The notes beneath the pieces are model-generated. The model searched no databases and was not told the origin of the DNA. It was given only the letters and a program-made list of their open reading frames with translations. A stretch of DNA of 64,000 nucleotides from assembly GCA_040387855.1 (NCBI GenBank), contig JAZKCY010000001.1:381857-445856 (forward strand), in the 5' to 3' direction. The translations under genes were made by a program, and so were the position numbers. The stretch is from Patescibacteria group bacterium (GTDB lineage: Bacteria; Patescibacteriota; Minisyncoccia; Phycocordibacterales; JAKAEA01). Positions 10,365-39,641 of this stretch are shown here, in pieces; position 1 is the stretch's first letter; each line of letters begins with the position of its first letter.

Positions 10365-10371
10365 GACTATA

Positions 10372-14376: not shown

Positions 14377-15390
14377 ATGTCTATGTTTTCTAAAAAGCTC
14401 GGGATTGATTTAGGTACCGCAAATACATTGGTGTTTTTACCGGGTAAAGGGATTGTGTTAAATGAACCATCAGTAGTTGCTATTTCTGAGCAAGATAATC
14501 GGATTTTGGCAGTAGGAGCCGATGCAAAACAAATGATTGGCCGAACTCCAGACAATATTATTGCGTATCGACCAATGAAAGACGGTGTTATTGCTGATTA
14601 CCGAGTTACTGAAGCAATGCTTAGATACTATATTAATAAAGCATTAGGTAAGTGGAGTTTTTTTAAGCCTGAAGTAATGGTTTCAGTGCCAGCCGGAGTT
14701 ACATCTACAGAACGACGCGCTGTTATTGAAGCTGCAATTAAGGCTGGAGCAAAAAATGCTTATGTAGTGAAAGAGCCTATTCTTGCTGCTATCGGAGCTG
14801 GTATTTCTATTCAAGAACCTGTAGGTCGCATGATTGTTGATATTGGAGGAGGTACAACAGACGTTGCTGTGATATCTCTTGGTGGTATTGTGTCGTGTAC
14901 ATCAGTCAAAGTTGCTGGAAATAAAGTGGATACTGCAATCATAGACTATATAAAGAAGACATTTAACCTTTCTATTGGAGATAAAACCGCTGAGGATATC
15001 AAAATTCAGATTGGATCGGCTATTCCGCTTGAAGAGGAACTCTCAATGACTATCAAGGGGCGTGATTTTGTAACTGGCCTTCCACGATCTGTTGAAATTA
15101 AAACTAATGAAATCGTAAAGTGTTTGGCAAAAGAACTTCGGGAGATGATTAATGCTATTAAGACTGTATTGCAGGATACTCCACCAGAACTTGCTTCAGA
15201 TATTATTGACCAGGGAATTATTATGACGGGTGGATCATCACAATTGAGAAATCTCCCAGAACTTGTATTCCGAAGAACTGGTGTTAAAGCCACTCTTGCT
15301 GACGATGCACTCTTTTGTGTTGCAAAAGGAACTGGTATTGCACTCGAACATCTTGATACTTACAAGAAGAGTATTATATCTAAGCGATAA
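14377..15390 (+). CDS. mreB: Rod-shape/actin-like protein MreB (paralog 1)
   Basis: GIDLGTANTLV N-terminal actin-fold phosphate-1 motif. Conserved throughout. Confidence 0.85.
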   Translation: MSMFSKKLGIDLGTANTLVFLPGKGIVLNEPSVVAISEQDNRILAVGADAKQMIGRTPDNIIAYRPMKDGVIADYRVTEAMLRYYINKALGKWSFFKPEVMVSVPAGVTSTERRAVIEAAIKAGAKNAYVVKEPILAAIGAGISIQEPVGRMIVDIGGGTTDVAVISLGGIVSCTSVKVAGNKVDTAIIDYIKKTFNLSIGDKTAEDIKIQIGSAIPLEEELSMTIKGRDFVTGLPRSVEIKTNEIVKCLAKELREMINAIKTVLQDTPPELASDIIDQGIIMTGGSSQLRNLPELVFRRTGVKATLADDALFCVAKGTGIALEHLDTYKKSIISKR

Positions 15391-21621: not shown

Positions 21622-24600
21622 ATGGGCACTATTTTTACGAAAAAACTTTTCAGTTCTTATGCTCTTTCTCTCTTCATTTTAGTTTCATTTATTGTAACTT
21701 CATGTTTTGGAATTGTGCTTCCAGAAGTTGCATCTGCTGCTCTCAACAAACAAATAAATTATCAAGGAAAACTTACAAATGCTTCTAATGTTGCAGTAGC
21801 CAACGGTACCTATGAAATGGTTTTTAATCTTTATACAGTTTCTTCTGGAGGATCTCCAATTTGGACTGAAACACGAAGTGGTGGAAGTGAGGTGACTGTT
21901 ACCAACGGACTTTTCAGTGTGATGCTTGGAGAAGTCGCAACACTTGATGCCGTAAATTTTAATCAGACATTGTACCTCGGAGTAACCATCGAAGCTGATG
22001 CAGAAATGTCACCTCGAAAAAAATTGGGAGTTGTGCCTGGTGCAATTGATTCAGAACGACTTGGAGGATTAAACAGTTCACAATTTTTACGAGCTGATGC
22101 AGCAAATGCAACATCAACTGCTTCTACATATCTTACTGTCACACAAAACGGAGCAGGAAAAATTGCAGAATTTTTTGGACCAAGTTCAGCATCAGTACTT
22201 TCAATTACAGCTGATGGAAAAGTGGGGATTGGCACAACAACTCCGTATGCAAAACTTTCGGTAGCGGGGGCAATTGTCGGTGAATATTTTGTTGGAACTT
22301 CAACTGCGACCTCTACACTTGGTGGAGGTCTTTCTGCAACTCGTTTCCAAGCAACAGCAACATCAACAATGGCAGGCATTAATCTTGCTTCTGGATGTTA
22401 TGCCATTGCAGGAGCATGTATTGGTGGATCAAGTCTGTTGGGGACTACAGGTCAGGTTGCATATTTTAGTGGTACCAATACTGCTGTAGGTACTTCATCA
22501 CTTTCGTTTGATAATGCTGGTAATGTGAGTATCGCTAAAAACTTGTTTGGAGGTATTTGGACTATTGACCAAAATGGTATTTTTTATGGTACTTCAACAA
22601 ATTCTCTTGGGGCATCGTATGGTAATTACACAGGATTTGCTGTTGCAGTAAATAGCGGAGGATATGTAATTGATGATCAGGGTAACACATTGTCAACATT
22701 ATTTGCTGATGAAGCAGGTAATTCACTTACTGCAAATTATGCAGCAAACAACTTTGGACAATTCTTTACCGGAAATGGTTTTACGTTAGATGCAAATAAT
22801 CAAAAAATCACAAGTATTGGTTTGGGATCTACATCAGCTCCTTCACTTTCTTTCAATAGTGATTCAAATACCGGTATCTTTTCTCCGGGTGCAGATAGTA
22901 TTGCATTCTCAATTGGTGGAGCAGAGCGAGTAACTATTGGATCAACAGGTAACTTTGGAATTGGAACAACATCACCATACGCAAAACTTTCAGTAGCAGG
23001 TGAAGTTGTTGCCTCACATTTTACTGCAACTTCGACAACCGCAACATCAACATTCGCAAATGGTTTAAATATTACTGGTGGATGTTATGCCGTAGCAGGA
23101 GTCTGTCTTTCATCAGGTTCAAGTCTTACTGGTACAACTGGCCAGCTCGCATATTTTAGTGGGACAAATACTGCGATTGGAACATCATCAATTTTCCTAG
23201 CAACAAATCAAAATGTGGGAATCGGTTCTACTACACCTGGTTCAAAACTTTCAGTAAACGGAACAGTTGCTGCTGATTCATTTAATGTTCTTACCAATAA
23301 TGAAGGTTATAAAATTAGAGGTACAACTATTTTGAATGCATCATCTTCAATTTCAAGTCTTACAATTGGTGTTAATGCGGGTGCAAATCTTGGAGGCAAC
23401 TCTTCTTCAAACGTTGCGATCGGATCATTTGCAATGAATTCTACATTGAGCGGAGATTCAAACATTGCCCTTGGATACAGTTCTTTGTACACAAATGAAA
23501 CAGGAAATAATAACATCGCTATTGGTTATTCTGCTTTAGATGCATTGCTTGCAAATTCAGATAACGTTGCGCTTGGTACAGAAGCAGGTAAAAATACTAC
23601 AGGTTCAAACAACCTTTTCTTAGGTCATGGAGCAGGATATAACGGCGGAACAAATGCGATTACTTCTGGCTCAAATAATATTCTCATTGGATACAATGTA
23701 ACTGGTACATCATCAACAGCAACAAACTTTTTAAATATAGGTAATGCACTCTATGGAAACTTATCAAATGGAAATATTGGAATTGGTTCAACATCGCCAA
23801 ACTCAAAGCTTTCTATTGTAAGCCAAAATGCTGTTGGTTTAGAGATTTCAGCTGGTGATGCTAATTCTTATACAGGACTTTCTCTTGGTAGACTTGCAGC
23901 TGATGCAAATTTCTCAATCGCTGGTACTGGAGGACAATGGGCTCAGGATGCTACATCAGGAGATTTAATTATACGAACACAAACTACTGATATGTTCTTT
24001 GATACGAATGGCGGAGTGGGCACCTCAGCATTTACTATTCTTTCAGGTAATGGAAATGTAGGAATTGGAACAACCTCACCTTATGCAAAACTTTCTGTAG
24101 CTGGAACTGTAGTTGGACAGAATTTTGTTGCGACATCAACAACTGCAACATCAACATTTGCTGGTGGTTTAGTTGCAGGAGGGACTACTGGTCTGATTGT
24201 ATTACAAAATGGAAATGTAGGAATTGGTACAACCACTCCTAATCAAGGCTCAGCTGGAGGAGGAGCCGCAAAAGTTTTAAGCTTCAGTGATCCTTTAAAT
24301 ACAGTATTAAGAGTTACTGGGGGAGATGTTAATGCTGTATTTCAAACTCTAAATAATGATGCTGTATATGTTGGACCTACATCGGCGCATTCCCTTAATT
24401 TGGTTACAGAAGGATCATCAAAATTAACCATATTAAGTGGAGGAAATGTTGGAATCGGTACTACAACACCATATGCAAAACTTTCAGTTGCAGGAACTAT
24501 TGTAGGAGCAAATTTTGTTGGTACCACAACTGCAACCTCTACACTTGGTGGTGGATTATCAGCAACTCGTTTTCAAGCGACAGCAACATCAACAATGGCA

Positions 24601-26688
24601 GGTATTGATCTTACTTCTGGATGTTATGCCATTGCAGGAACATGTCTTTCAACTGGTGGATCAAGTCAATGGACAACTGCCGGAAATAATATTCACTTTA
24701 ATACAGGTAATGTAGGTATCGGAACAACATCTCCATTATCAGCACTAGCTCTTGGTACATCTACAACCGCCGCGGGAACAGCTGGTATTTATGAGTTTTT
24801 AACACTCAATAGTGCTTCTGGTGCAACACAGTTTGGAAATCAAATGTATGTAGTAAATGCACCTACAGGATCTGCAAATACTATGGTCGCTCAAATGATT
24901 CGAGTTGAAGATAGTACTGCACTCACAAATACCGTGCGAGGTCTTGAAGTACAAGCACACAGAGGTACAAATACATTGGGAGAAAATACTGGAGTTTCAG
25001 CATTCGGAAGAACATTCGGTATTAAGGGAGTAACTATTGGTGATGCCGGTGGGACACTTGCACCTGCTGGAGTCTACGGAGAAACTCGAGGAACAACACA
25101 GGGTAACGCATTCCGAGGATATTCAAATACTATTACTTCATCAAACCTTTCATATTTGTATCAAGAAACATCCGCATTTACTGGTGATGTATTTCGAGCC
25201 GATGTAGGAAATGGAGCTGGATCATTTAGTGGAAATCTTTTGAGATTGCAAGTTGCCGGAGTAAATAAATTTAATGTAAGTGCACATGGGACAACTACCA
25301 TTGGGGATGGAGTGAATTTTGCAGGTCTTGTGGTCTCAAATGGAGCCCTTACTGTAAGTGGTACTGCTACCTCAACATTCTCAAATGGAATAAATATAGC
25401 AGGAGGATGTTTTGCTGTTTCAGGAAGTTGTTTGTCAACAGGTGGTACAAGTCTTATCGGAACGACTGGTCAGTTTGCGTACTTTAGTGACACAAATACT
25501 GCAGTTGGTACTTCATCATTATTCTTGGCAACAAATGGTAATGTAGGAATTGGAACTACCTCACCATATGCAAAGCTTTCTGTTGTTGGTGAAATAGTAG
25601 CTTCACACTTTACTGGTACCACAACAGCAACCTCAACATTGGGAGGAGGTCTTTCTGCAACTCGTTTCCAAGCAACAGCAACCTCAACGATGGCAGGTAT
25701 AAATTTAACTGGTGGATGTTTTTCTATTTCAGGAACATGTCTTTCAGCAGGTGGTGGCTCTGGAACGGTTGGAGCTGGAACTACAGGATATGTGCCATTT
25801 TATGCAGCAGGTGGAACAACACTTACTGCAACATCTTCACTATTTATAGCTGCAAATGGAAATATTGGAATTAACACTGTAAGTCCAACAGCAGATCGAC
25901 TTCACATTGGGGCAGATAGTTCATGGACTGGTCTTCGGGTAGATGCTGGAACTGCAGGAACAAGTGGTGCGTATATTGATTTTTATGATCATCTTGGATC
26001 AAAGGCCGGAGGATTCGTGTATGACGAACTTGATGGTGACTCATTAAAGTTTAAAACATATTTTGGAAGTAATGATATAAAATTCATCACAAATAATAGT
26101 GATGAGCGAATGACTATTTCGGGTGCTAATGGATATGTTGGTATAGGAACCACATCACCTTATGCCGCACTCTCAGTAGCCGGTGCATCTGGAGTTGTTG
26201 CTAATATTTTTAATGCGACATCAACTACTGCAACATCAACATTTGCCGGAGGTCTTTCAATTGCAACCAACGGATTGGTATATGATCGTTCAACGGGATA
26301 TGTGGGTGTGGGAACTGCATTGGCAAAACGAAAGCTTGATGTAACTGATGCTTCAAATCCTCAAATGCGTTTGAGTCAAACAAACAACTCTGTATTTTCT
26401 GATTTTAAGGTTGCAGCAACAACTGGAGATCTTACTGTAAGTATAAATACTACAGCTGAAAATGTTATATTCAATCAGCCATCCGGTACAACAGGAGCAA
26501 ACGTATGGGCTTGTCAGGGAGACGCATGTCCTACTGCATATCTAAATCTTGCTGATGGAGGTAACTTTGTAGCAGAAAAAGCATACTACTTTGGAAACGG
26601 ATTTAAGATCTCAACTGTAGATGCATCTACAACAGCTGTCTACGACACTACAAATACAATCATCCTACAATTCGACGAAGCACCGTAA
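21622..26688 (+). CDS. Giant (1688 aa) secreted Gly/Thr/Ser-rich repeat protein (tail-fibre-like / beta-helical adhesin-like)
   Basis: Signal peptide. At least 7 copies of a GNVGIGTT(S/T)PYAKLSVAG module. Five copies of a GC(Y/F)A(I/V)(A/S)G(T/A/V)C Cys pair. About 120-bp repeats of ~85-90% identity at 22283, 24506 and 25615. Confidence 0.6.
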   Translation: MGTIFTKKLFSSYALSLFILVSFIVTSCFGIVLPEVASAALNKQINYQGKLTNASNVAVANGTYEMVFNLYTVSSGGSPIWTETRSGGSEVTVTNGLFSVMLGEVATLDAVNFNQTLYLGVTIEADAEMSPRKKLGVVPGAIDSERLGGLNSSQFLRADAANATSTASTYLTVTQNGAGKIAEFFGPSSASVLSITADGKVGIGTTTPYAKLSVAGAIVGEYFVGTSTATSTLGGGLSATRFQATATSTMAGINLASGCYAIAGACIGGSSLLGTTGQVAYFSGTNTAVGTSSLSFDNAGNVSIAKNLFGGIWTIDQNGIFYGTSTNSLGASYGNYTGFAVAVNSGGYVIDDQGNTLSTLFADEAGNSLTANYAANNFGQFFTGNGFTLDANNQKITSIGLGSTSAPSLSFNSDSNTGIFSPGADSIAFSIGGAERVTIGSTGNFGIGTTSPYAKLSVAGEVVASHFTATSTTATSTFANGLNITGGCYAVAGVCLSSGSSLTGTTGQLAYFSGTNTAIGTSSIFLATNQNVGIGSTTPGSKLSVNGTVAADSFNVLTNNEGYKIRGTTILNASSSISSLTIGVNAGANLGGNSSSNVAIGSFAMNSTLSGDSNIALGYSSLYTNETGNNNIAIGYSALDALLANSDNVALGTEAGKNTTGSNNLFLGHGAGYNGGTNAITSGSNNILIGYNVTGTSSTATNFLNIGNALYGNLSNGNIGIGSTSPNSKLSIVSQNAVGLEISAGDANSYTGLSLGRLAADANFSIAGTGGQWAQDATSGDLIIRTQTTDMFFDTNGGVGTSAFTILSGNGNVGIGTTSPYAKLSVAGTVVGQNFVATSTTATSTFAGGLVAGGTTGLIVLQNGNVGIGTTTPNQGSAGGGAAKVLSFSDPLNTVLRVTGGDVNAVFQTLNNDAVYVGPTSAHSLNLVTEGSSKLTILSGGNVGIGTTTPYAKLSVAGTIVGANFVGTTTATSTLGGGLSATRFQATATSTMAGIDLTSGCYAIAGTCLSTGGSSQWTTAGNNIHFNTGNVGIGTTSPLSALALGTSTTAAGTAGIYEFLTLNSASGATQFGNQMYVVNAPTGSANTMVAQMIRVEDSTALTNTVRGLEVQAHRGTNTLGENTGVSAFGRTFGIKGVTIGDAGGTLAPAGVYGETRGTTQGNAFRGYSNTITSSNLSYLYQETSAFTGDVFRADVGNGAGSFSGNLLRLQVAGVNKFNVSAHGTTTIGDGVNFAGLVVSNGALTVSGTATSTFSNGINIAGGCFAVSGSCLSTGGTSLIGTTGQFAYFSDTNTAVGTSSLFLATNGNVGIGTTSPYAKLSVVGEIVASHFTGTTTATSTLGGGLSATRFQATATSTMAGINLTGGCFSISGTCLSAGGGSGTVGAGTTGYVPFYAAGGTTLTATSSLFIAANGNIGINTVSPTADRLHIGADSSWTGLRVDAGTAGTSGAYIDFYDHLGSKAGGFVYDELDGDSLKFKTYFGSNDIKFITNNSDERMTISGANGYVGIGTTSPYAALSVAGASGVVANIFNATSTTATSTFAGGLSIATNGLVYDRSTGYVGVGTALAKRKLDVTDASNPQMRLSQTNNSVFSDFKVAATTGDLTVSINTTAENVIFNQPSGTTGANVWACQGDACPTAYLNLADGGNFVAEKAYYFGNGFKISTVDASTTAVYDTTNTIILQFDEAP

Positions 26689-26698: not shown

Positions 26699-27460
26699 AT
26701 GATAATTTCCGAACTGAAAGATTTATTAAAAAATATTGTACGATGGGCATTTGCATTCATAGCTTTGTCTACTTTTTTCTTTCTATTTTCTACACAAACG
26801 GTGACGATAAAAGGCAGGGAAGTGCCAGTGCCTTGGATGACTGATTCATCATATACGATTCAGTTTTTTGATACATTACAGCGTACATTGATACCAAGTG
26901 AAGTAGATCTTATTGTTACAAATCCATTCGATGCTTTTTTTATAGAGGTTAAATTATCTTTATTTTTAGCCTTTATTGTATTGTCGCCTTTTCTTTTGTG
27001 GGGAATACTACGATACCTTTCGCCAGCATTAAAACAGTCAGAAAGAAAATCATTATATAAAGTTGTATTACCATCTACTATTTTGTTTTTTAGCGGATGT
27101 CTATTTGCATATGCATACATTATTCCTTCTACGATAAAAATAATGTATGCACATGCGCCCAATATCAAAGCAATTCAGTACTTCAATGTTAATGATTTTA
27201 TTTCATTAGCACTCATGATGATGGTTGCTACGGGAATAATGTTTGTTCTTCCTGTGTGCATGGTTATCTCAAGTTATCTTGGGATAGTTAACCCCGTTAT
27301 TTGGAAACAGTATTGGCGCCAGGCAATTTTTGGATGTCTGTTAGTTACAGCAGTAATCACACCCGATGGTAGTGGAATTACCATGGCAATGCTTGCGATT
27401 CCACTCTGTTTACTCTATATAGTAGGCCTTTTTATCAGCTGGCGGTATAAAACTAGTTAG
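26699..27460 (+). CDS. tatC: Twin-arginine translocase subunit TatC
   Basis: Six TM helices with a TatC-like pattern (LSPFLLWGILRYLSPAL, ILFFSGCLFAYAYIIP). ATG at 26699 sits 11 nt after the giant gene's stop. Confidence 0.75.
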   Translation: MIISELKDLLKNIVRWAFAFIALSTFFFLFSTQTVTIKGREVPVPWMTDSSYTIQFFDTLQRTLIPSEVDLIVTNPFDAFFIEVKLSLFLAFIVLSPFLLWGILRYLSPALKQSERKSLYKVVLPSTILFFSGCLFAYAYIIPSTIKIMYAHAPNIKAIQYFNVNDFISLALMMMVATGIMFVLPVCMVISSYLGIVNPVIWKQYWRQAIFGCLLVTAVITPDGSGITMAMLAIPLCLLYIVGLFISWRYKTS

Positions 27461-27504
27461 TATATACTTATAGATAAGTAAAGCTTATAAATTATATAAA
27501 ATCT

Positions 27505-27711
27505 ATGTTTGGATTAGGCGTACCAGAACTCATAATTATAGTATTAGCGTTTGGATTACTCTTTTTTGGTAGTAGTAAAATATCTGAATTTTCACGAAGT
27601 CTGGGAAGAATGTCTGGAGAATATAAAAAGAGCAAGCGTGAGATTGAAAAAGAAATTGAGGAAAGTGAACTAAAAACAACTGATCAGAAAAAAACTGATA
27701 CAACTAGTTAG
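27505..27711 (+). CDS. tatA: Twin-arginine translocase subunit TatA/E
   Basis: MFGLGVPELIIIVLAFGLLFFGSSKISEFSRSLGR is the canonical TatA N-terminus. Confidence 0.85.
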   Translation: MFGLGVPELIIIVLAFGLLFFGSSKISEFSRSLGRMSGEYKKSKREIEKEIEESELKTTDQKKTDTTS

Positions 27712-27725
27712 TTCTAATTTGGTAT

Positions 27726-27986
27726 ATGGCAGTACATCACAAACATACGGCTTCAGAAGAAGTACAAAAAAAGACACGTCGAAACATGATCAAACTTGCA
27801 CTTTTTGGAGGTGCTGCTTTTGTACTTGGGAAAGTATTTAATTCTGTTACTGAACATTTCTCAGATAAAGTAATACGTAATGTAGATTTTCAGAATTTCA
27901 ATTTTCAAGAATCAGAAAAAAAACTCACTATATCTGAAAAAGATGGTGAGCCACTGCTTATCATCGAAAAAGATTCATTTAAATAA
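27726..27986 (+). CDS. Small protein (86 aa) with a twin-arginine (Tat) signal peptide
   Basis: KKTRRNMIKLALFGGAAFVLG fits S/T-R-R-x-hydrophobic-hydrophobic-K plus an h-region. The gene lies immediately downstream of tatA. Confidence 0.5.
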   Translation: MAVHHKHTASEEVQKKTRRNMIKLALFGGAAFVLGKVFNSVTEHFSDKVIRNVDFQNFNFQESEKKLTISEKDGEPLLIIEKDSFK

Positions 27987-28001: not shown

Positions 28002-29540
28002 ATGACGGACACTGAATTACAGGCACAAGCAGCACATGCACAAGGTTTAGCATACTTAGAAAAAGGTATGTTTGGTGAGGCACTATTTCATCTAAAAAAA
28101 GCAATTACATTAGTCCCTAATTATTTAGAAGCACACAACACTTTGGGGCGAGCCTATAATGAAACAGGTGACTTCGAGTTGTCTATACAAACATGTCTCC
28201 ATATACTAAGTCAAAATCCACAGGCATATTTTGTGTTACAAAATATTGCTAAATCGTATGGAGAAATGGGACGACACGCTGAAGCACTGTCGTATTATTA
28301 CAGGTATATCGCTCTTAGTCCTACTGCGGCTACAGCCTACAGTGACCTTTTTTTAACACTAAATTATCTACCAATGTCGCGTGAAGCAATGTTTGTAGAA
28401 CATTATAAGTTTCATATATTTGATAAAAATAATACAAATAGTAACTATCTGTATCAGAAAAATATTCATGATAGTAGTAAAAGAAAAATCAAAGTTGGTT
28501 ATGTTTCAGGGGATTTAAGAGAGCATCCTGTAGCGCATCTTTTTGTTCCTGTTATAAAAAATCATGACAGATCAAAATTCAATATTCATATCTATAATAA
28601 TACGCATAGTCAAGATGATGTTACCAAGAAAATAAAGAATTATGGTGATACCTGGCGCGATATACAAGCACTTTCGCATGAAGATACACTAGAACTCATT
28701 AGGTCAGATAATTTAGATATTCTTGTGGATTTATCTGGACATACTGGCAGTAATAGACTTTTGATTTTTGCAGCTCGGGCTGCTCCAATACAGGTAGCGT
28801 GGTTGGGATATATGAATACTACGGGTCTTAAAAATATGGATTATAGAATTACAGATTTTAATTTGTCAGTACCTGATTCTGAAAAATACTATACTGAAAA
28901 GTTATGGCGAGTTACAAATTCTTTTACGTTCGATCCACTTATGGAGTTGCCTGATATCGATGATTTACCAGCTTTAAAAAATGGGTTTATAACATTTGCC
29001 TCATTAAATAATTATAAAAAGATTACTTCTCATGTTTATGATGTATGGGCAGATATTTTAAGAAAGATACCAACATCACGCTTGGTATTTTCGCTCAAGG
29101 GTAATGACACGCTTAAACAGTCGGTACTTACAAAATTTGAACTAAGAGGTATTAGTTCAGATCGAATTAAAATAATTGATCAAAAATTGATTGAAGATTA
29201 TGTGAAATTTTTCAATGATATAGATATATTATTAGATCCATTTCCATTTACAGGGTGTATTACTGTATTTCATGGTCTGTGGGGTGGAGTGCCATCTATC
29301 GTTATGGAAGGAGTAACAGAATATGAGCGTAACGGTCCAACTGTTATGAAAAAAGTTGGATTAGATTCATGTATTGCACATAATCCTCAAGAATATGTAG
29401 ATATCGCAGTTTATTGGGCAAGTCATTTTGATGAATTGGCTGAATTGCGTAAAAAAATGCGTGAAAAGTTCCCTAAAAATGAGGATAAACTAGTAACAAA
29501 AGGCATTGAAGACGCATTTATAAAAATGTATAATAGATAG
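28002..29540 (+). CDS. TPR-repeat protein fused to a GT41 (O-GlcNAc-transferase-like) glycosyltransferase domain
   Basis: N-terminal TPRs. The C-terminal KIKVGYVSGDLREHPVAHLFVPV...NIHIYN block matches the OGT/GT41 catalytic-domain signature (LRVGYVSSDF.NHPTSHLM). Confidence 0.65.
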   Translation: MTDTELQAQAAHAQGLAYLEKGMFGEALFHLKKAITLVPNYLEAHNTLGRAYNETGDFELSIQTCLHILSQNPQAYFVLQNIAKSYGEMGRHAEALSYYYRYIALSPTAATAYSDLFLTLNYLPMSREAMFVEHYKFHIFDKNNTNSNYLYQKNIHDSSKRKIKVGYVSGDLREHPVAHLFVPVIKNHDRSKFNIHIYNNTHSQDDVTKKIKNYGDTWRDIQALSHEDTLELIRSDNLDILVDLSGHTGSNRLLIFAARAAPIQVAWLGYMNTTGLKNMDYRITDFNLSVPDSEKYYTEKLWRVTNSFTFDPLMELPDIDDLPALKNGFITFASLNNYKKITSHVYDVWADILRKIPTSRLVFSLKGNDTLKQSVLTKFELRGISSDRIKIIDQKLIEDYVKFFNDIDILLDPFPFTGCITVFHGLWGGVPSIVMEGVTEYERNGPTVMKKVGLDSCIAHNPQEYVDIAVYWASHFDELAELRKKMREKFPKNEDKLVTKGIEDAFIKMYNR

Positions 29541-29545
29541 TATCT

Positions 29546-29938
29546 ATGGCTATAAATGTATCGCGTAATCGAATTGACTTTAATGATATTCGTGCGGAGT
29601 CTGCTGAATTTAGAGACAGTGCAGAAAGTGTAAATGCAATTGGTAGTGCGTCAGGTGCTGAGGCAATTGATTATTCACTGGGCAATGTCGTAACAGCAAC
29701 AACAACTGGTGCAACTGTCTGGTCTGTGACAAATCCACCTGCATCAGGAAAAGCTGGGAGTTTTACCCTTATTCTTACAAACGGCGGTAGCCAGACTCAA
29801 ACATGGATGAGTGGTACAAAATGGCCAAGTGGAGCAGCGCCAACACTTACTTCGTCAGGGATAGATATACTTACCTTTTTTACGGTTGATGCTGGTACTA
29901 CATGGTATGGAGTGTTGGCAATGAGTGCTATGGCTTAA
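29546..29938 (+). CDS. Hypothetical Thr/Gly-rich protein
   Basis: 130-aa ORF, tightly spaced within the operon. No domain recognised. Confidence 0.35.
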   Translation: MAINVSRNRIDFNDIRAESAEFRDSAESVNAIGSASGAEAIDYSLGNVVTATTTGATVWSVTNPPASGKAGSFTLILTNGGSQTQTWMSGTKWPSGAAPTLTSSGIDILTFFTVDAGTTWYGVLAMSAMA

Positions 29939-29979
29939 TATTTTTTGATTATTGCACTATGTTTGGACTAGGAGCAAAA

Positions 29980-32900
29980 ATGAGAGCAATTCAACAAACG
30001 GTTGTAGCTATTATTGATAATAGTTATCTTTTTGGTTGGGGGAAAAATACTTCCGGTCAAATTGGTAATAGCTCATTAACGAGTCAATCAAGTCCTGTTG
30101 GTCTAGGTACAACTTCTGATTGGAAAATGCTCTCTGGAGCATACACATTTTCGGCGGGAATCAAGACAAATGGGACACTATGGACATGGGGCGCTGGGAT
30201 ATTCGGAACTTTGGGGGATAATACAGATTCAGTTGCAAAATCAAGTCCAATTCAAGTTGGAACACTCAGTGATTGGGATACTGTTAGTACAGCAAAATTT
30301 CATGCTTTAGCTCGTAAAACAAATGGAACGATCTGGGGATGGGGGTTTAATGGTGGTGGTCAACTTGGCCAAAATAATATTACAGATAGATCAAGCCCAG
30401 TTCAGATTGGGACTTTAGGTACTTGGACCCATATTTTTACCGGTGGTCAAATATCAGGTGCGCGAAAAAGTGATGGAACACTGTGGTCATGGGGCCGAAA
30501 CACCTATGGGGCACTTGGAATCAATGCTGCAGGAGATAGATCAAGTCCTATTCAAATTGGAACTTTGACAACATGGGATCATATGTCTTTCGGATACCGA
30601 ACTGGATTGGCAAGAAAAACCGATGGTACCATTTGGGGATGGGGCAATAACAATCTTGGACAAATTGGTAACAGTACGGTTGTTAACAGATCAAGCCCTG
30701 GACAAATCGGTACTCTTACAACCTGGAGTAGTATTCATGCAGGGAACTTACATGGTATAGGCCGAAGGTCAGATGGTACATTGTGGGGTTGGGGTTGGGC
30801 TGGAAAAGTTGGAGATAATACTGCAACCAATAAATCAAGTCCAGTACAAATTGGAACATTAAGCTCATGGCTACATGTCGCTACTGGTTATGACCACACA
30901 CTGGCAAAAAGATCAGATGGAACTATTTGGAGTTGGGGATATGCTACATACGGTCGTTTGGGGGATAATGCCACTACTGATAGATCGAGTCCTGTGCAAA
31001 TTGGAACACTAACAGAATGGGATTCCATTTTTGCAGGGAGCAGTTCTCATTCTTCGTTTGCTTTAAAAAGATATAATCTAGGTATGTTTGCATGGGGAGT
31101 AGGTTCCCTCGGTCAAATAGGAAATAATGATGTAAGTCAACAAGATAGTCCGTTACAAGTGGGTACACTCACTTCATGGGAGGGTGTAGCTGTTGGTGCT
31201 AGTACCGTGCATGCATGGAAATCAGATGGAACACTGTGGACATGGGGTAGAAACTCATACGGTCGTTTGGGAGATAACACAACCACGAACAGATCAAGTC
31301 CAGTCCAAATTGGTACCCTTAATGTATGGAAAATGGCAGCTTCAGGTACAGGCCACTCAAGTGCTGTAAGAACTAACGGAACATTGTGGTCATGGGGATC
31401 TGGTGCAAACGGAGAAATGGGAGATAACACAGCAATTTCTAAATCAAGTCCAGTACAAGTAGGAACACTCTCAATTTGGGCAGAAACGTCCGCAGGAAGT
31501 ACATTCACCGTTGCGCGTCGAACAAATAATACTATTTGGTCATGGGGTAGTAACTTGTATGGTCGTTTGGGTCAAAGCACTACTACAAATAGATCTAGTC
31601 CAGTGCAAATTGGAACATTAAGTAACTGGTCTGGTATTTCTGCAGGAGGCCAACATGCACTAGGAATAAAAACTGACGGTGGTATTTGGGCATGGGGTCT
31701 GAACACCTCTGGACAAATGGGAGATAATACTGCTGTTACAAAATCAAGTCCTGTTCGTATTGGGACTCTTACAAACTGGAAAGGTATTTCAGCGGGTGCA
31801 TCTCACAATGTTGCGTGGAAAACTGACGGATCATTATGGGCATGGGGAATAAATACAAACGGAAGATTGGGAGATAATACTACTACAACCAGATCAAGTC
31901 CTGTGCGTATTGGGACTTTATCTGATTGGGCTTCAGCTTCTGCCCAACTAGAGCATACTATTGCTCGAAAGACAGACGGTACGCTATGGGCCTGGGGAAA
32001 GGGAGACTATGGTCAGCTTGGAGATGGAATTGCACGACTTAAGAACACACCACTTCAAATCGGTACGCTAACAAACTGGGGAACTGTATCTATGGGAGCC
32101 TCACACACCGTTGCATGGAAAACAAATAATACTATTTGGGGATGGGGAATTGGGGGCCAAGTGGGAGACAATACCGCTGTTACAAGATCAAGCCCCGTAC
32201 AAATTGGAACGCTATCTACATGGCAATCTATTGATACTGGTGATTCACATACTGTAGCTATAAAGACTGACGGTACAATGTGGGCATGGGGAGCAAACAC
32301 GTCAGGCCAAGTAGGAGACAATACGAATGTTACAAAATCAAGTCCTGTACAGATTGGAACTTTAAACACATGGGCAAGTGTGTCGGCTGGAAATATTCAC
32401 TCTATTGCTCGAAAAACAGATAGTAGTATTTGGTCATGGGGACTTGGAAGTGTGGGTGCACTTGGAGATAATACAGCCACTACCAAATCAAGCCCGGTAC
32501 GAATTGGTACACTTAATACCTGGGCAAGTGTGACTGCTGGTGGAAACCACTCTCATGCAATAAAAGCTGATGGATCATTGTGGTCATGGGGTTACAATTT
32601 TTATGGGCAATTAGGCGATAGTTCAAATGTGGCTAAATCAAGTCCTGTTCGAGTTGGTACGCTCAATGATTGGTCAATTGTATCAGCAGGAATTCAGCAT
32701 TCATTAGCAATCAAAACAAACGGGACATTGTGGGCATGGGGATTTGGAACTTCCGGACAGCTTGGAGATAATACGGGTGGAACCTTCTCAAGTCCAATTC
32801 AAATTGGTACGCTCACTACTTGGGCTGGGGTGTCTGCAGGTGCAGAACACTCTCTTGGATGGAAAGCTGATGGAACTTTGTGGGCCTGGGGCTACAATGC

Positions 32901-33174
32901 ATCCGGACAATTGGGAGACGGTACATTTACTCAATATCTTAGTCCTATTCAAGTTGGTACGGTTTCTACATGGAGTACTGCTTCAGCTGGACCAAACCAC
33001 AGTGGTGCTGTGAGAGCCGATGGGACATTATGGATGTGGGGAACTCGTCTTAATGGTAGAATCGGAGATAACAACATGCCGGGTAAATCGAGCCCAATTA
33101 AAATAGGTACCATGAACGATTGGCGTACATTGGGTAACGGTCCAAATGGACTGATGAGTATTTCAATTAAATAA
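29980..33174 (+). CDS. RCC1/BLIP-II-type beta-propeller repeat protein (about 20 repeats), no signal peptide
   Basis: About 50-aa repeats (GTLWxWGxNxxGQLGDNTxxxxSSPVQIGTLxxW) occur at regular intervals. ATG at 29980 is preceded by AGGAG. The track's longer version starts at 29902. Confidence 0.7.
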   Translation: MRAIQQTVVAIIDNSYLFGWGKNTSGQIGNSSLTSQSSPVGLGTTSDWKMLSGAYTFSAGIKTNGTLWTWGAGIFGTLGDNTDSVAKSSPIQVGTLSDWDTVSTAKFHALARKTNGTIWGWGFNGGGQLGQNNITDRSSPVQIGTLGTWTHIFTGGQISGARKSDGTLWSWGRNTYGALGINAAGDRSSPIQIGTLTTWDHMSFGYRTGLARKTDGTIWGWGNNNLGQIGNSTVVNRSSPGQIGTLTTWSSIHAGNLHGIGRRSDGTLWGWGWAGKVGDNTATNKSSPVQIGTLSSWLHVATGYDHTLAKRSDGTIWSWGYATYGRLGDNATTDRSSPVQIGTLTEWDSIFAGSSSHSSFALKRYNLGMFAWGVGSLGQIGNNDVSQQDSPLQVGTLTSWEGVAVGASTVHAWKSDGTLWTWGRNSYGRLGDNTTTNRSSPVQIGTLNVWKMAASGTGHSSAVRTNGTLWSWGSGANGEMGDNTAISKSSPVQVGTLSIWAETSAGSTFTVARRTNNTIWSWGSNLYGRLGQSTTTNRSSPVQIGTLSNWSGISAGGQHALGIKTDGGIWAWGLNTSGQMGDNTAVTKSSPVRIGTLTNWKGISAGASHNVAWKTDGSLWAWGINTNGRLGDNTTTTRSSPVRIGTLSDWASASAQLEHTIARKTDGTLWAWGKGDYGQLGDGIARLKNTPLQIGTLTNWGTVSMGASHTVAWKTNNTIWGWGIGGQVGDNTAVTRSSPVQIGTLSTWQSIDTGDSHTVAIKTDGTMWAWGANTSGQVGDNTNVTKSSPVQIGTLNTWASVSAGNIHSIARKTDSSIWSWGLGSVGALGDNTATTKSSPVRIGTLNTWASVTAGGNHSHAIKADGSLWSWGYNFYGQLGDSSNVAKSSPVRVGTLNDWSIVSAGIQHSLAIKTNGTLWAWGFGTSGQLGDNTGGTFSSPIQIGTLTTWAGVSAGAEHSLGWKADGTLWAWGYNASGQLGDGTFTQYLSPIQVGTVSTWSTASAGPNHSGAVRADGTLWMWGTRLNGRIGDNNMPGKSSPIKIGTMNDWRTLGNGPNGLMSISIK

Positions 33175-33180: not shown

Positions 33181-35124
33181 ATGGCAACCCTTACTGAAAT
33201 TCTAGAAATATCTGGAACATTAGAAAAAGCAGAAGAAATAGCTCGGCAATTAGTAGTGCAAGATCCAACATATATGTTGGATCTTCAGCTTATATTGAGC
33301 GCTCGTGGTAAAGTTGCAGAATCTAAAAAAATTATTGAAGATCTGAGTAATAAGTTTCCCAATGATCATAGAATAGCTTTCAACCAAGGATGGCACGTAT
33401 TGAATGAAGGTGATTTACAGCGGGGAATGGAACTCATAGATCGAGGAAGAAATGTGGGGGTATTTGGTTCACCCGCACTTCAAACAGATAAGCCCTTATG
33501 GGATGGGAAAAATGCCAAAGGAAAAACTATTTTACTTCGATGTGAAGGAGGATTGGGAGATGAAATTCTTAATATTCGTTTTGCTAAAGATATAGCAGAG
33601 AGAGGTGGAACAGTTATAGTAGCTTGTGATAAAGGTTTGCAAAGCGTGTTCTCTCGAGTTTCAGGCGTCGCCAAAACTATTTCTTTAGATCACATTCAAG
33701 ATGAGTACTTTGATGCATGGGTACCTGCTATGAGCGCTGTAAGAGTGTGTGGTCACACTTATGAAACACTTCCAAGTGAAGCTTATATTACTGCTTTACC
33801 AGAGAAAATTGCAGAATGGAATAAGACTGTTAATGCTGATAATGGAGTGTTGAAAGTTGGAATACGCTGGTCTGGCAATGCAGAATTTGAACATGAACAA
33901 ATGCGAAGATTCCCTTTCAAGCATATCTTGGATGTATTTGAAACTCCCAATGCTAAATTTTTTAGTTTACAACGTGATTCGGATTTGAAAGTGTTACCTC
34001 CTGAAGTTGTCGATTTAAGTGGTCTTATGAATACATGGGAAGATACAGCAGGAGTTATTGCAAACTTAGATTTAGTAATAACTTCATGTACAAGTGTTGC
34101 TCATATGGCGGCAGCAATGGGCAAAGAAACATGGATTATTGTTCCACTAATGCCATATTATACGTGGGCTATGCCTGGGAATAAAACTCCATGGTATAAA
34201 AGCGTGACGTTGTATAGACAAGAATCAGACACAAACTGGGAAGCCTCATTTATAAAGGTACGACAAGCATTAGAAGAATCGACAACTCAAGTAATACGTA
34301 CTAGTATTGATCCAATGCAAAATCACACAAAAAAGACGCTCCATTTCGTAGCAGGACTACCGCGTTCTGGTAGTACTATGCTCATTAGTTTGCTTGCCCA
34401 AAATCCTACTATTTTCGGTGCACCCGTTTCAGGTTTGGCTGGTATTGTAAACGGAGTAAATACTAATTGGGATAAAATAGAATTTCATAAGGAAGTTCCT
34501 AATGAAGAAGCAAAGATGTATACCTTGCGAGCTATTTTAGATAGCTATCATGCTGCAACATCTAAACCAATTATCCTAGATAAAGAGCGTCATTGGATTC
34601 GTTATATTTTATTGCTTGAAAAGTTATTAGACAGAAAAGTGAAAGTAATTGTTCCTGTTCGTCCTATTGCAGAAATACTCACTTCATTTGAAGTATTGCG
34701 ACAAAAGAATCCATTAACTCTCACAATGGTGGATGAAGTACTTGGTCCGAAATCTACATTATCTACACGTTGTGATTACTTTATGAATGAAGAAGGTCCT
34801 GTAGGGAGTTGTATCAATTATACTCGTGATGCTGTCATTTCCGGCTTGAGTGATCGTTTATTATTTGTGGATTACAATAAATTTATTGCTAATCCCGAGC
34901 GTGATCTAAAACGAATATATAGTTTCTTAGAAATCCCTTATTTTGAGCATGATTTGCATAACATAAAGCAGCTTACTATGAGTGATGATTCAATATGGAA
35001 GTATCCAGGATTACATGATGTTCGATCTGTCGTATCAAAAATCTCTGCTGATCCTATAAGTGTCCTTGGTCCTGAGCTTGTAGCAAAGTTTAGTCAGGGT
35101 GAACCATGGGAAAATTGGACATAA
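33181..35124 (+). CDS. Tri-partite enzyme: TPR-like N-terminus, GT9 (heptosyltransferase-like) glycosyltransferase, and a C-terminal sulfotransferase domain
   Basis: GT9 motifs KTILLRCEGGLGDEI and DLVITSCTSVAHMAAAMGKETWII. The C-terminus has a PAPS-binding-type LPRSGSTML P-loop (5'-PSB) and a downstream basic motif. Confidence 0.6.
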   Translation: MATLTEILEISGTLEKAEEIARQLVVQDPTYMLDLQLILSARGKVAESKKIIEDLSNKFPNDHRIAFNQGWHVLNEGDLQRGMELIDRGRNVGVFGSPALQTDKPLWDGKNAKGKTILLRCEGGLGDEILNIRFAKDIAERGGTVIVACDKGLQSVFSRVSGVAKTISLDHIQDEYFDAWVPAMSAVRVCGHTYETLPSEAYITALPEKIAEWNKTVNADNGVLKVGIRWSGNAEFEHEQMRRFPFKHILDVFETPNAKFFSLQRDSDLKVLPPEVVDLSGLMNTWEDTAGVIANLDLVITSCTSVAHMAAAMGKETWIIVPLMPYYTWAMPGNKTPWYKSVTLYRQESDTNWEASFIKVRQALEESTTQVIRTSIDPMQNHTKKTLHFVAGLPRSGSTMLISLLAQNPTIFGAPVSGLAGIVNGVNTNWDKIEFHKEVPNEEAKMYTLRAILDSYHAATSKPIILDKERHWIRYILLLEKLLDRKVKVIVPVRPIAEILTSFEVLRQKNPLTLTMVDEVLGPKSTLSTRCDYFMNEEGPVGSCINYTRDAVISGLSDRLLFVDYNKFIANPERDLKRIYSFLEIPYFEHDLHNIKQLTMSDDSIWKYPGLHDVRSVVSKISADPISVLGPELVAKFSQGEPWENWT

Positions 35125-35139: not shown

Positions 35140-36459
35140 ATGAAACATTTCCATACAAATATTCAAGGATGGTTTTTTGCAGAATATTTTTTTGCTGACA
35201 TTGTTAAAAATGCACCTGATGGTGCGCATTTTGTTGAAGTTGGAAGTTGGAAAGGAAAGAGTGCTGTTTTTATGGCAGTTGAGATTGCCAACAGTGGAAA
35301 GCGAATAAAATTTGATTGTATTGACCATTGGAAGGGCTCGAAAGATACATACTTAGAAAACGAAGATCAAGCTGTTAAAGACGGTAATCTTTTTGAGGTT
35401 TTTAAAGAGAATATTGAGCCAGTACAAGAGTACATAAATGCTATCGATGGAGATAGCGCTGCTACAGCTTCACGTTATGCAGACGGATCTCTTGATTTTA
35501 TCTATATAGATGCTGCACATGATTATGAAAGCGTAAAAAGAGATATTAAGGCTTGGTTACCCAAATTAAAGTCAGATGGAGTCATTGCTGGGGATGATTT
35601 TACTGAAGCATTCCCTGGATTAGTTCAAGCTGTGCAAGAAATATTCCCTCAAGGATTATCAGTAATTCACCCTACATGGGTTGTGGATCGACGTACAATA
35701 AATTCAGAACAAGGATGTTCGATAATCTTTAGATGCCATACTGGTGATAATGTTCATGATGGAGTACGATTTGCTGGGGTAAGTAAAACAGAACTTGTTG
35801 TTAAGTGTTTTAAATCTATAGTGTCGGCAGCAGAAATTGTAAACCGTGATATTGAAATTGTGATTGTAGATGATCATTCAGAAAAGAAATGTATTGAAGC
35901 ACTTGAAGATGTGCTAACAACTTCACGACATCCACATAAAATAATTCATGTAACAGACACAGGTAATAAAGCATCGTTACGAGAATCATTCGAATATGCT
36001 CGTGATTATGGTAAAGAGCTTGTTTATTTTGTGGAGGATGATTATTTACACCTCCCTACATCATTACTGGAAATGATCGAGCAACAAACTGAGTTTAAAA
36101 ATAACTTAAACAATAAAGAAGTGGCATTTTATCCCGTTGATTATCCAGATCGATATCAACCTCAAGGAATATATCAATCAATGATAGTTCTTGGCAAACA
36201 CCGTCACTGGAGAACTACTCGACACTCAACACTTACTTTTTTTTCTTCTCGGAAAGCAGTTTTTGAATATTGGGAATTATTTGAAAAAATGTGGCAAGGG
36301 GAGGGTAATTTTGTAGATGAAGATCAAACGGTAAATAAACTGTGGGGTCCAGATATTCAGCTCTTTTCTCCAATTCCAACACTCGCTATTCATATGCAAT
36401 TCGAAGAACACAAACCTCCTTTTGTTGATTGGCAAAAGTATTGGGATGCTATACAGTAA
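35140..36459 (+). CDS. Fusion: class I SAM-dependent methyltransferase (Methyltransf_24/TylF-MycF/CmcI-like) plus GT-A-fold glycosyltransferase domain
   Basis: The N-terminus has VEVGSWKGKSAVFMA and DFIYIDAAHDYESV. The C-terminal ~250 aa (IVIVDDHS...YFVEDDYLH...HW(R)T...LAIHM) is paralogous to 37046..37816 and 37813..38580. Confidence 0.6.
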   Translation: MKHFHTNIQGWFFAEYFFADIVKNAPDGAHFVEVGSWKGKSAVFMAVEIANSGKRIKFDCIDHWKGSKDTYLENEDQAVKDGNLFEVFKENIEPVQEYINAIDGDSAATASRYADGSLDFIYIDAAHDYESVKRDIKAWLPKLKSDGVIAGDDFTEAFPGLVQAVQEIFPQGLSVIHPTWVVDRRTINSEQGCSIIFRCHTGDNVHDGVRFAGVSKTELVVKCFKSIVSAAEIVNRDIEIVIVDDHSEKKCIEALEDVLTTSRHPHKIIHVTDTGNKASLRESFEYARDYGKELVYFVEDDYLHLPTSLLEMIEQQTEFKNNLNNKEVAFYPVDYPDRYQPQGIYQSMIVLGKHRHWRTTRHSTLTFFSSRKAVFEYWELFEKMWQGEGNFVDEDQTVNKLWGPDIQLFSPIPTLAIHMQFEEHKPPFVDWQKYWDAIQ

Positions 36460-38615: not shown

Positions 38616-39641
38616 ATGAAAAAACTACTAAATTTTGTTAAATATAATAACTTCTTTTCTCTCGGAGTTATGTTTCTGTTACTTGGAACTGGAGTGACTT
38701 TTGCTGCGAGTCCTACCGCACGTGATGCAATAGTTTTAAAAAATGAATCTGTTGTATCTATTGATAATACCTATATTATTAGTGTAAATTTAAATGCATT
38801 TAACCCAAATCTAAAGATTACTACAATTACTGAAGATGCAGTTAATTACAATGTAGGGTACAGCTACGATACAATTGATCTTATTGATGATATCTGGCAG
38901 CGTGCTACATTACAAAAAACGTTGGTAGTGTCTAAAGAAGCATTGCAAGGTAAAGATCTTGGATTATTTGTATCTGAGCAATTAAGTCAGATGGTAGATA
39001 GTCATTTGGCATATCTTAAAAATGTACAAAAGATAGAAATAACTAAAGGTGCTACACAAAAAATTGTTGCTACTGAATATTCCGGCCTTCTTGGAAGTGT
39101 ATTGAGTTCACAGGAAAAAGTATTCAATGGATATGTTCCTGTGATTCCTCCAGAAAATAAAGATGAAGAAAAGACAGAGACACTTGCTGTGAATGAAGAA
39201 CCAGAATCAGAACGATCAAAATCAATCGGAGCTGCAGAACGAGCTGCTATTCAACAGCAGAAAGATGAGGAAGCTCGACGACAATCTGAAGAAGCTAGAA
39301 TTAGAGATGAAGTGAATCGAATGCTTGAAGAACAAAATAAACCACAAGAAGAAGTTCCAGCTGAAACTGAAGAGCCAGCTCAACCAGTTGGATCTGCAAG
39401 TGGTAGTGAGTCAGAAATAGAAACTCCAACCCCGGAACCCACACCAACTCCGGAGCCTATACCAGAACCTGAACCAACTCCGACCCCAGAGCCAACTCCA
39501 ACACCGGAACCAGAACCCACACCAACCCCAGAACCTCAGCCTGAGCCAACACCGACTCCAGAACCAACTCCTACACCTGAGCCAGCACCAGAGGCCGAAG
39601 AGCCAGTTACAACCCCATCAGAACCTGCTCCTGATCAATAA
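38616..39641 (+). CDS. Secreted protein with a charged coiled-coil segment and a C-terminal (P-T/E-P) repeat tract
   Basis: Signal peptide ends AAS. The C-terminus is (T/E)P(T/E)P repeats of about 80 aa. Confidence 0.55.
   Translation: MKKLLNFVKYNNFFSLGVMFLLLGTGVTFAASPTARDAIVLKNESVVSIDNTYIISVNLNAFNPNLKITTITEDAVNYNVGYSYDTIDLIDDIWQRATLQKTLVVSKEALQGKDLGLFVSEQLSQMVDSHLAYLKNVQKIEITKGATQKIVATEYSGLLGSVLSSQEKVFNGYVPVIPPENKDEEKTETLAVNEEPESERSKSIGAAERAAIQQQKDEEARRQSEEARIRDEVNRMLEEQNKPQEEVPAETEEPAQPVGSASGSESEIETPTPEPTPTPEPIPEPEPTPTPEPTPTPEPEPTPTPEPQPEPTPTPEPTPTPEPAPEAEEPVTTPSEPAPDQ

Follow-up and report, generated by a model that had tools for sequence, protein, structure and literature searches.

The stretch analysed here, hereafter the window, comprises 64 kb of a 981,549-bp contig from a metagenome-assembled genome of a Patescibacteria bacterium. 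Our subject is a short gene coding for an 86-residue protein with a twin-arginine (RR) motif, which we call the mini-protein, and its association with tatC and tatA, the genes of a twin-arginine translocation (Tat) system that directly precede it. The three genes belong to an island of surface-fibre genes (~17.8-39.6 kb), which is bordered by mreB, holB, frr and rseP on one side and by the genes for a class-II aminoacyl-tRNA synthetase, MreB, MreC and PBP2 on the other, all of them housekeeping genes. Throughout ~14.4-47.9 kb the genes lie on the + strand with short intergenic gaps. The stop codon of a giant open reading frame (ORF) at 26688 is followed after a 10-nt gap by the ATG of tatC at 26699; 44 nt separate tatC from tatA, and 14 nt separate tatA from the mini-protein ORF. 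A scan for promoters and terminators returned fewer matches than in shuffled sequence and was uninformative. The features at the centre of the locus are the following.

21622-26688, + strand: giant surface protein of 1688 residues; N-terminal signal or anchor of the Sec type, GNVGIGTTSPYAKLSV motifs occurring as repeats
26557-26685, + strand: C-terminal module of the giant protein, its last ~43 residues, ending in FGNGFKISTVDASTTAVYDTTNTIILQFDEAP (hidden Markov model (HMM) of the module, hhalign)
26699-27460, + strand: tatC, 253 residues (Pfam PF00902, TIGR00945, PDB 4B4A)
27505-27711, + strand: tatA, 68 residues (Pfam PF02416)
27726-27986, + strand: gene of the twin-arginine mini-protein, 86 residues (NCBI V4519_02290; conserved family, linkage to tatA)
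27777-27833, + strand: Tat signal and probable signal-anchor, with the twin arginines (27777-27782), NMIK, the hydrophobic region (h-region) LALFGGAAFVLG and Lys36 (conservation)
27870-27977, + strand: predicted four-stranded beta-meander, residues 49-84 (AlphaFold2 (AF2) model, column conservation)

The 86-residue ORF is a real gene and not a chance ORF, given its 83 relatives, a pair of arginines that is invariant in 85/85 aligned sequences and 55 true family members in metagenomes. No family in Pfam, NCBIfam or PHROG covers the mini-protein, and a word-indexed homology search with the ORF returned only the query itself. When 1.84 billion representatives were scanned exhaustively with HMMER, at least 83 relatives of 61-148 residues emerged. 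One of the matches, P0151 (1111 residues), was discarded as a repeat-driven false positive caused by a 'TVTVKDGEAVLTLDKD' hairpin. A DNA pattern derived solely from the C-terminal domain of the mini-protein retrieved 55 metagenome loci (50 distinct), all of them true members of the family, and gave zero matches in 2.9 million viral contigs. In the databases V4519_02290 is labelled 'hypothetical protein', and NCBI lists one relative as 'twin-arginine translocation signal domain-containing protein'. At one of the loci used for comparison, which are designated by L numbers in the following, the mini-protein gene was missed by the gene finder of the source contig (L008, 5136-5351), and the family is therefore probably under-annotated. 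A literature search found no report on the mini-protein family or on the gene cassette described below.

The textbook Tat motif is (S/T)-RR-x-F-L-K, and a basic residue after the h-region is a known 'Sec-avoidance' feature, Sec being the general secretory pathway. At the N-terminus of the mini-protein in the window, the sequence is ...KKT-RR-NMIK-LALFGGAAFVLG-K..., where M-I replaces F-L after RRN, and the consensus of the family is [ND]xxRR[NT][FL]LK, hhhhGGGAFhLG, K, hFGP. R18 and R19 are the sole invariant columns of the alignment, and RR is found in 54/55 of the metagenome copies as well. Other positions of the signal are also strongly conserved, with K23 in 69/87 sequences, G28 and G35 in 82/88 each, and K or R at position 36 in 83/88. 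The maximal hydropathy of the h-region over 12 residues is 1.84 +/- 0.57 for the family and 2.12 for the window copy; that of the neighbouring Sec signals ranges from 2.1 to 3.0, the lowest of them equalling the window copy. Among 78 relatives, 31 match the Tat-signal model TIGR01409 (best 2.2e-5), 25 match Pfam TAT_signal PF10518 (best 7.5e-5) and 21 match the Rieske anchor model TM_PetC, PF25471 (best 3.9e-7). HiPIP, EfeB-type peroxidase and Rieske proteins, which are known Tat clients, are among the best PDB sequence matches of the N-terminus, all of them below threshold. The preliminary description of this DNA had read a Tat signal in the small ORF and proposed conservation of the RR motif in homologues as a check; the motif is indeed conserved. 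Judging from these sequence features, the mini-protein is very probably targeted to TatC by its RR motif and exported in a Tat-dependent manner.

Within the 64-kb window and ~+/-6 kb around 11 related loci, the mini-protein is the sole credible RR candidate. The ORF at 42016-42822 was considered as an RR client and rejected, as it codes for MreC with a very hydrophobic anchor. The remaining ORFs of the window that combine RR with a hydrophobic segment are off-frame or internal segments and were rejected too. A single member of the family has KR instead of RR (L032, 1480-1755, 'NPRKRTIIKL'), and it may offer a natural test case for the loss of Tat dependence.

The identities of tatC and tatA, for which the preliminary description had proposed HMM searches as a control, are borne out for both genes. 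TatC matches Pfam PF00902 over the full length of the profile (3-208/208; E 3.4e-47, 161.4 bits for a cut-off of 25.1) and narrowly passes NCBIfam TIGR00945 (133.6 bits, cut-off 132.7). Over residues 56-247, it can be aligned to the crystal structure of Aquifex TatC (PDB 4B4A) with no large gap, and it also aligns to the cryo-electron microscopy structures of E. coli TatC. Glu115, in the segment 'ALKQSERK', aligns with Glu103 of the E. coli protein, in 'ALYKHERR', a conserved cytoplasmic residue that forms part of the twin-arginine recognition site. E5 (in SELKD) is the probable equivalent of E15, as assigned by inspection alone. A simple hydropathy scan delineates strong hydrophobic segments at residues 13-29, 88-104, 122-138, 164-190 and 230-246, with a weak fifth transmembrane (TM) segment. 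A weak TM5 is also seen in known TatC proteins, and the profile is consistent with the TatC topology.

As for TatA, it has the expected layout of a short N-terminal TM helix, an FG hinge and an amphipathic helix (MFGLGVPELIIIVLAFGLLFFGSSKISEFSRSLGR). It scores 35.1 bits against Pfam PF02416 (TatA_B_E; cut-off 21). Its 35.5 bits against NCBIfam TIGR01411 are below the cut-off of 53.9, and it falls under all the equivalog cut-offs of NCBIfam, which makes it a divergent TatA. No TatB-like gene is present in the window. Systems made of only TatA and TatC have been reported in Paceibacteria and in other classes of the candidate phyla radiation (CPR) (PMC9166423). The view that Tat is uncommon in very small genomes, expressed in the preliminary description, needs to be corrected in this respect, as Tat is on record for several CPR classes (PMC9166423). 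A scan of genome contigs with TatC identified just two loci, both distant and irrelevant, one in Melioribacteraceae and one in Acidimicrobiia. In the former (L001, unrelated to our locus), tatC is followed by an RR mini-ORF of 62 residues (10341-10529) and by an RR protein of 1020 residues (10535-13597).

The association between the small gene and the tat genes holds well beyond the window. We looked up the genetic contexts of 11 distinct loci, found through relatives of TatC and of the mini-protein, and counted linkage in those metagenome loci that have enough flanking sequence. The small gene directly follows tatA in 11/11 of the looked-up loci. In the metagenomes, tatA is present less than 400 nt upstream of the small gene in 46/48 loci and tatC is upstream in 25/28. 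The preliminary description had suggested that the translocase is encoded together with a mini-substrate dedicated to it, and this recurrence of the small gene after tatA reinforces the suggestion. Upstream of these genes, the C-terminal module of the giant protein is found in 21/24 loci. Downstream, an ORF beginning with a conserved N-terminal motif (the N-motif, see below) is found in 22/36 loci by a strict regular expression and in ~30/36 on a relaxed reading. The start of this ORF is usually located between -22 and +143 nt from the stop of the small gene, and the two genes often overlap or lie less than ~30 nt apart.

A few loci depart from this arrangement. L032 is the only one in which the small gene directly follows the giant gene, with neither tatA nor tatC in between. 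In L026 and L061, tatA alone precedes the small gene, and tatC is absent upstream. L005, from the same groundwater site, harbours tatC alone (6001-6762), between gatB and gap, whereas L007 (1-12798) has a full island at the same gatB...gap-rpiB chromosomal site, with the giant gene, tatC, tatA, the small gene, a tail-fibre-like gene and a sulfotransferase gene. The island forms an indel-prone, hypervariable region. Small genes that look selfish, coding for a 23S rRNA intervening-sequence protein or a GIY-YIG protein, are inserted directly downstream of the mini-protein gene at three loci unrelated to each other (L007 7506-7850, L011 4297-4668 and L008 5418-5630).

Structure prediction by AF2 with an alignment of 78 sequences gave a model of the mini-protein with a mean pLDDT (predicted local distance difference test) of 82. 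It comprises a helix (residues 16-44) and four strands (49-54, 58-63, 66-71 and 76-81), and the conserved residues of this beta-module are F55, N57, F58, E62, K65, D71, G74, D/E81 and K82. A Foldseek search against the PDB found nothing significant, the best superpositions being with single blades of beta-propellers. The family alignment contains no conserved Cys or His, which makes a cofactor unlikely. The preliminary description had envisaged the export of a folded cofactor protein, an idea left without support by this lack of conserved Cys and His and by a mature part that appears to be a beta-meander of ~35 residues. An ectodomain of 35 residues is unusual.

No AxA cleavage site follows the h-region. 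Instead, there is a conserved G-K-x-F-G-P segment, in which Pro comes after the next small residue. With the predicted helix continuing to residue 44, these features point to an uncleaved signal-anchor and do not argue against Tat targeting. Retention of the mini-protein by its uncleaved signal, as an anchor with the N-terminus inside and the C-terminus outside, is in our opinion somewhat the more probable outcome, because AxA is absent, G-K-x-F-G-P is conserved and the helix is predicted to run through residue 44.

The giant protein (21622-26688) matches no Pfam family. A 'GNVGIGTTSPYAKLSVAG' motif occurs in it six times or more, and its orthologue in L003 has LVIVD repeats. Related loci carry a syntenic giant gene upstream of tatC, and these giants have in common a C-terminal module of ~43 residues, the C-module, with the pattern W.C.G..CP ... 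FGNGFK ... TT.AVYD.....I.FDE. An HMM of the C-module, for which there is no Pfam model, detects a single protein in each locus, and the match is invariably at the very C-terminus; the module is present in the window, in L003, L006-L008 and L010-L014, and in 21 metagenome loci. The C-module resembles a module for sorting or docking.

The C-module aligns in register with the beta-module of the small protein (F.NF+h.E..KEh.hYDK.G.EILIIDK). The similarity is significant only in profile-profile comparisons with shuffle controls. Using nine giant sequences, hhalign gave a probability of 88.6% (P 2.6e-6), and the score was matched by none of 300 column shuffles. Larger sets of 27 giant and 137 small sequences led to a probability of 86.8% (P 4.2e-6); again, none of 200 shuffles attained the observed score, and a score of 8.3 was obtained in the reversed control, against 30.8 for the real alignment. 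Homology between the giant C-module and the beta-module of the mini-protein is thus probable, not proven, on the strength of these profiles.

Downstream of the mini-protein gene, the island codes for proteins without signal peptides and for modification enzymes. In the window, the gaps are of 15 nt between the 86-residue ORF and the TPR/GT41 gene, 5 nt between the latter and the ORF of 130 residues, and 20 nt between that ORF and the RCC1 gene.

28002-29540, + strand: glycosyltransferase with TPR and GT41 (O-GlcNAc-transferase-like) domains (Pfam Glyco_transf_41 4.7e-46, TPR)
29546-29938, + strand: 130-residue protein resembling tail-fibre C-termini, no signal peptide (PHROG families 7760/9017)
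29959-33174, + strand: RCC1-repeat beta-propeller protein, ~1071 residues from MFGLGAKMRAIQQ, no signal peptide (Pfam RCC1, RCC1-like domain)
33181-35124, + strand: sulfotransferase, a cytoplasmic modification enzyme of the island (Pfam)
35140-36459, + strand: methyltransferase/GT2, a cytoplasmic modification enzyme of the island (Pfam)

The 130-residue protein matches the PHROG tail-fibre families 7760/9017 with E values of 4.6e-12 and 3e-11, and its relatives do so down to 1e-22. It starts with the N-motif MAINVSRNRIDF (29546-29581), whose family form is M-x-[IM]-[KR]-[IV]-S-[KR]-N-R-[IV]-D-[LMF], or MxIRISKNRID in short. The N-motif, seen on proteins of this kind only, is common to otherwise different proteins of 125-529 residues without signal peptides, among them tail-fibre-like, fn3-containing and Gly-rich ones, and there are several paralogues per locus (L009 146, 2257, 7056(-); L012 5932, 7931, 9347; L013 4700; L014 6427). 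The distal domains of the tail-fibre-like proteins are variable and include fn3 and Gly-rich regions. The tail-fibre-like genes are followed by genes for RCC1 propellers, beta-helices or Gly-rich proteins, which have no signal peptides either; the start of the RCC1 protein in the window was inferred from its orthologues in L003, L010 and L011. These signal-less downstream proteins nevertheless bear domains that are usually extracellular, such as fn3 and RCC1. The preliminary description had assigned ordinary Sec signals to the proteins flanking the tat genes. This holds for the upstream giant and FN3 proteins; downstream, the 130-residue protein and the RCC1 protein are devoid of any signal peptide, and the preliminary description had overlooked these signal-less neighbours. 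The label 'WxL-like' has no Pfam support. In a sub-group of loci, the gene after the mini-protein gene starts with a zinc ribbon, CxHKWIPLLGRVGKKNVPTSLFTCLKCG, followed by the N-motif in the form IKIS.YRLDM (L006 2146-2700; L008 5672-6265; L033, first ORF after the small gene).

The GT41 gene is a variable insert between the mini-protein and tail-fibre-like genes, being found at the same position in L003 and L004 only. Modification enzymes are scattered through the islands, with GT41, sulfotransferases (L003, L007, L012), methyltransferases and enzymes for the synthesis of 3'-phosphoadenosine 5'-phosphosulfate (L010). A role of the mini-protein as an accessory factor of the modification machinery, the other possibility raised in the preliminary description, is not indicated: a glycosyltransferase gene follows the small gene in just some loci, and the constant neighbours are the giant, with its mini-protein-like C-terminus, and the signal-less tail-fibre-like proteins. 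We also considered that the island might be a prophage. Genes for phage structure (capsid, tube, sheath, terminase) are absent from it, and we dropped this idea because of the lack of phage core genes and the absence of the DNA pattern from viral contigs.

Several other features of the islands deserve mention. A protein with a Sec-type N-terminus, 'MKKLLNFVKYNNxF...AASP', a Pro/Glu/Thr-rich tail and no Pfam family recurs in them (window, 38616-39641; L006 5116-6426; L011 990-2312; L014 4883-5698), and in L014 its gene lies between tatC and tatA. In the window, the island is bracketed by two MreB paralogues (14377-15390 and 40974-42041), the second of which is followed by mreC and a PBP2-like gene. 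The class-II aminoacyl-tRNA synthetase (45349-47250) is of the Asp/Lys/Asn type and carries a DUF2000 domain fused to its C-terminus.

Taken together, the presence of a Tat machine in a fibre gene cluster suggests that it helps to build or anchor surface fibres. With middling confidence, we propose that a minimal TatA-TatC translocase and its own dedicated client form the constant core of a variable surface-fibre island in Paceibacteria-type Patescibacteria, and that the client likely docks or escorts fibre proteins. More tentatively, the island's fibre proteins could have the beta-module as their docking or escort unit.

In this docking model, the invariant twin arginines of the 86-residue protein (T-RR-NMIK) would be what TatC recognises. 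The short hydrophobic helix, rich in Gly, would insert in the membrane, and the signal would stay uncleaved, N-in/C-out, as in Rieske proteins. The exported part would be the four-stranded beta-meander of ~35 residues, akin to the C-terminal module of the giant. In what we consider the most economical scheme, this module would bind the conserved N-terminal strand of a pre-folded, signal-less tail-fibre-like protein in the cytoplasm, which would then be carried through Tat by 'hitchhiking' with the mini-protein. The tail-fibre-like protein might thereafter be held at the membrane or passed on to the giant fibre, whose tip bears the equivalent module. Such a model would explain why a 35-residue domain devoid of cofactor uses Tat, why the giant protein bears a duplicate of the module, why the genes show translational coupling and why tat genes are present within a surface-protein island.

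A number of observations weigh against this proposal. The window's own copy of the mini-protein is below the thresholds of both TIGR01409 and PF10518. The hhalign probability for the two modules is of 87-89%, not >95%, and plain HMMER with the C-terminal domain of the small protein left the giant C-termini undetected, with later weak cross-hits at E 0.08-0.55. In phage tail-fibre profiles, the N-motif aligns at an internal position, and instead of a docking peptide it may thus be no more than the domain's first strand. The small gene and the tail-fibre-like gene of the window have the glycosyltransferase gene between them. Export of the tail-fibre-like and RCC1 proteins is putative. Finally, the putative partner would be the sole reason for a cofactor-less, 35-residue domain to need Tat over Sec/YidC.

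The first alternative is that the mini-protein is an ordinary Tat client, membrane-anchored or secreted, with a function of its own such as binding to cell-wall glycans, and that the linkage reflects a shared 'envelope island'. The same evidence for a Tat signal applies to such a protein, and the wide variation in island content between loci is compatible with it. We nevertheless find this explanation unlikely, as it accounts neither for the likeness of the mini-protein to the C-terminus of the giant nor for the start of the N-motif gene a few nt from the stop of the small gene in most loci. It also leaves unexplained why the giant-small-N-motif trio is intact in L032 without tat genes in between.

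Alternatively, the RR signal might be removed, and the mini-protein would then be released as a soluble factor of ~40-50 residues, for instance a signal, a toxin or a fibre-capping subunit. The size of the protein and a mature part made of one small domain would suit this function, and G35 with V, L or A at -3 is a possible signal-peptidase site. However, this sole candidate site lacks both AxA and a preceding polar c-region, and it is embedded in G-K-x-F-G-P with its Pro. The AF2 model has a continuous helix through residue 44, and the 21/78 relatives that match the Rieske model do so to an anchor that is not cleaved. Cleavage and secretion thus seem less likely still.

It is also conceivable that the mini-protein is an accessory or regulatory subunit of the translocase, either a 'pseudo-substrate' occupying the RR site of TatC or a TatB-like partner of TatA. 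Its linkage is tighter to tatA than to tatC, the tatA-small gene pair occurs without tatC upstream in L026 and L061 and tatC occurs alone in L005, and the succession of a short helix and an FG hinge is loosely reminiscent of TatA and TatB. Against this, the mini-protein has no similarity to the TatA/B/E families and its signal is of the canonical substrate type. Moreover, its conserved domain is predicted to be outside the cell and resembles a module of a surface protein, and known TatAC systems need no third subunit. We regard a role of this kind as improbable.

Lastly, it is very improbable that the N-terminus is a Tat-independent anchor inserted by YidC or Sec, its arginines simply obeying the 'positive-inside' rule, since, even though the window copy fails the Tat-signal HMM thresholds and the MreC of the window has KRR before a TM helix without being a Tat client, positive-inside residues are freely exchangeable between K and R and vary in position, yet RR is conserved in the family and its metagenome copies within a full RRxFLK consensus, the h-region is weak for a Sec/YidC anchor, and the gene is almost always beside tatA.

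The dedicated-client proposal can be taken one step further. Paceibacteria might use Tat as a display pathway for tail-fibre-like adhesins, with an RR-anchored module mimicking the docking module of the giant tip, and the fibre or RCC1 proteins so captured would possibly be already glycosylated or sulfated in the cytoplasm. We are doubtful about this extension. If it is true, ultra-small bacteria would possess a new modular system for export and surface assembly, and Tat cargo independent of cofactors would form a new class.

CPR bacteria, or Patescibacteria, live attached to other cells, and to our knowledge they have very few recognisable secretion systems. The conserved cassette described here has three parts, namely a giant protein with a C-module, tatC-tatA with an RR mini-protein whose module is probably homologous, and signal-less N-motif proteins. 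It would give folded adhesins, which may have undergone cytoplasmic modification beforehand, a concrete path to the surface. From the viewpoint of Tat research, the mini-protein is a natural minimal client, made of a signal and ~35 residues without cofactor, and it may be a new kind of hitchhiker adaptor. It also defines a new protein family, so far labelled only 'hypothetical' in databases.

How does this cassette compare with known Tat systems? Tat substrates can be encoded beside their own TatAC (PMC3827258). In Bacillus subtilis, phoD-tatAd-tatCd and ywbN/efeB with TatAyCy similarly combine a two-component TatA-TatC translocase, without TatB, with an adjacent RR client (PMC3827258). PhoD and EfeB are large metal or haem enzymes, unlike the cofactor-less client of 61-148 residues in a CPR surface-fibre island. 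The likeness to dedicated TatAC operons lies in the adjacency of the genes (46/48 for tatA, 25/28 for tatC), and exclusivity of the pairing is putative.

As for the signal, the mini-protein resembles the Rieske proteins PetA/PetC by its RR motif, its short Gly-rich helix, a Pro-containing segment and the lack of AxA, and in Rieske proteins the uncleaved Tat signal serves as an anchor. The Rieske model UCR_Fe-S_N is matched by 5/78 members of the mini-protein family. The likeness is confined to the anchor, and the mini-protein, with neither a Rieske domain nor conserved Cys or His, is an analogue and not a member of that family. The family TIGR02811, 'formate dehydrogenase region TAT target', also consists of tiny RR proteins with little beyond the Tat signal, encoded beside Tat-related genes. 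Six of the 78 relatives match it weakly (best E 0.019), below the cut-off and in the signal only, and its context is one of respiratory enzymes, in contrast with the surface-fibre island described here.

Small RR-bearing subunits are known to carry signal-less partners through Tat (PMC6719666; PMC4273604). The gamma subunit of the Burkholderia glucose dehydrogenase that depends on flavin adenine dinucleotide (FAD), PaoA of PaoABC and the small subunits of hydrogenases are hitchhiker systems of this type, in which the small subunit bears the sole RR signal and leaves the cytoplasm with its partners as a folded complex, and the cassette resembles them in having a small RR protein encoded beside signal-less proteins. 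There is no similarity in sequence or fold, the gamma subunit being made of five alpha-helices and the mini-protein of a predicted beta-meander. In addition, the known partners are redox enzymes, unlike the fibre-like proteins of the island, with which the complex is putative. The attachment of phage tail fibres offers another parallel, with downstream proteins that match PHROG tail-fibre families and combine a conserved N-terminal segment with variable distal domains. It is an analogy only, as the island has no phage structural genes and the pattern is absent from viral contigs. Dedicated Tat clients are therefore already known as a type, and what is new is the mini-protein family, for which there is no curated model. 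It belongs neither to the Rieske proteins nor to the known families of escort subunits; by analogy, it appears to work like a dedicated TatAC client, and it may work like a hitchhiker escort.

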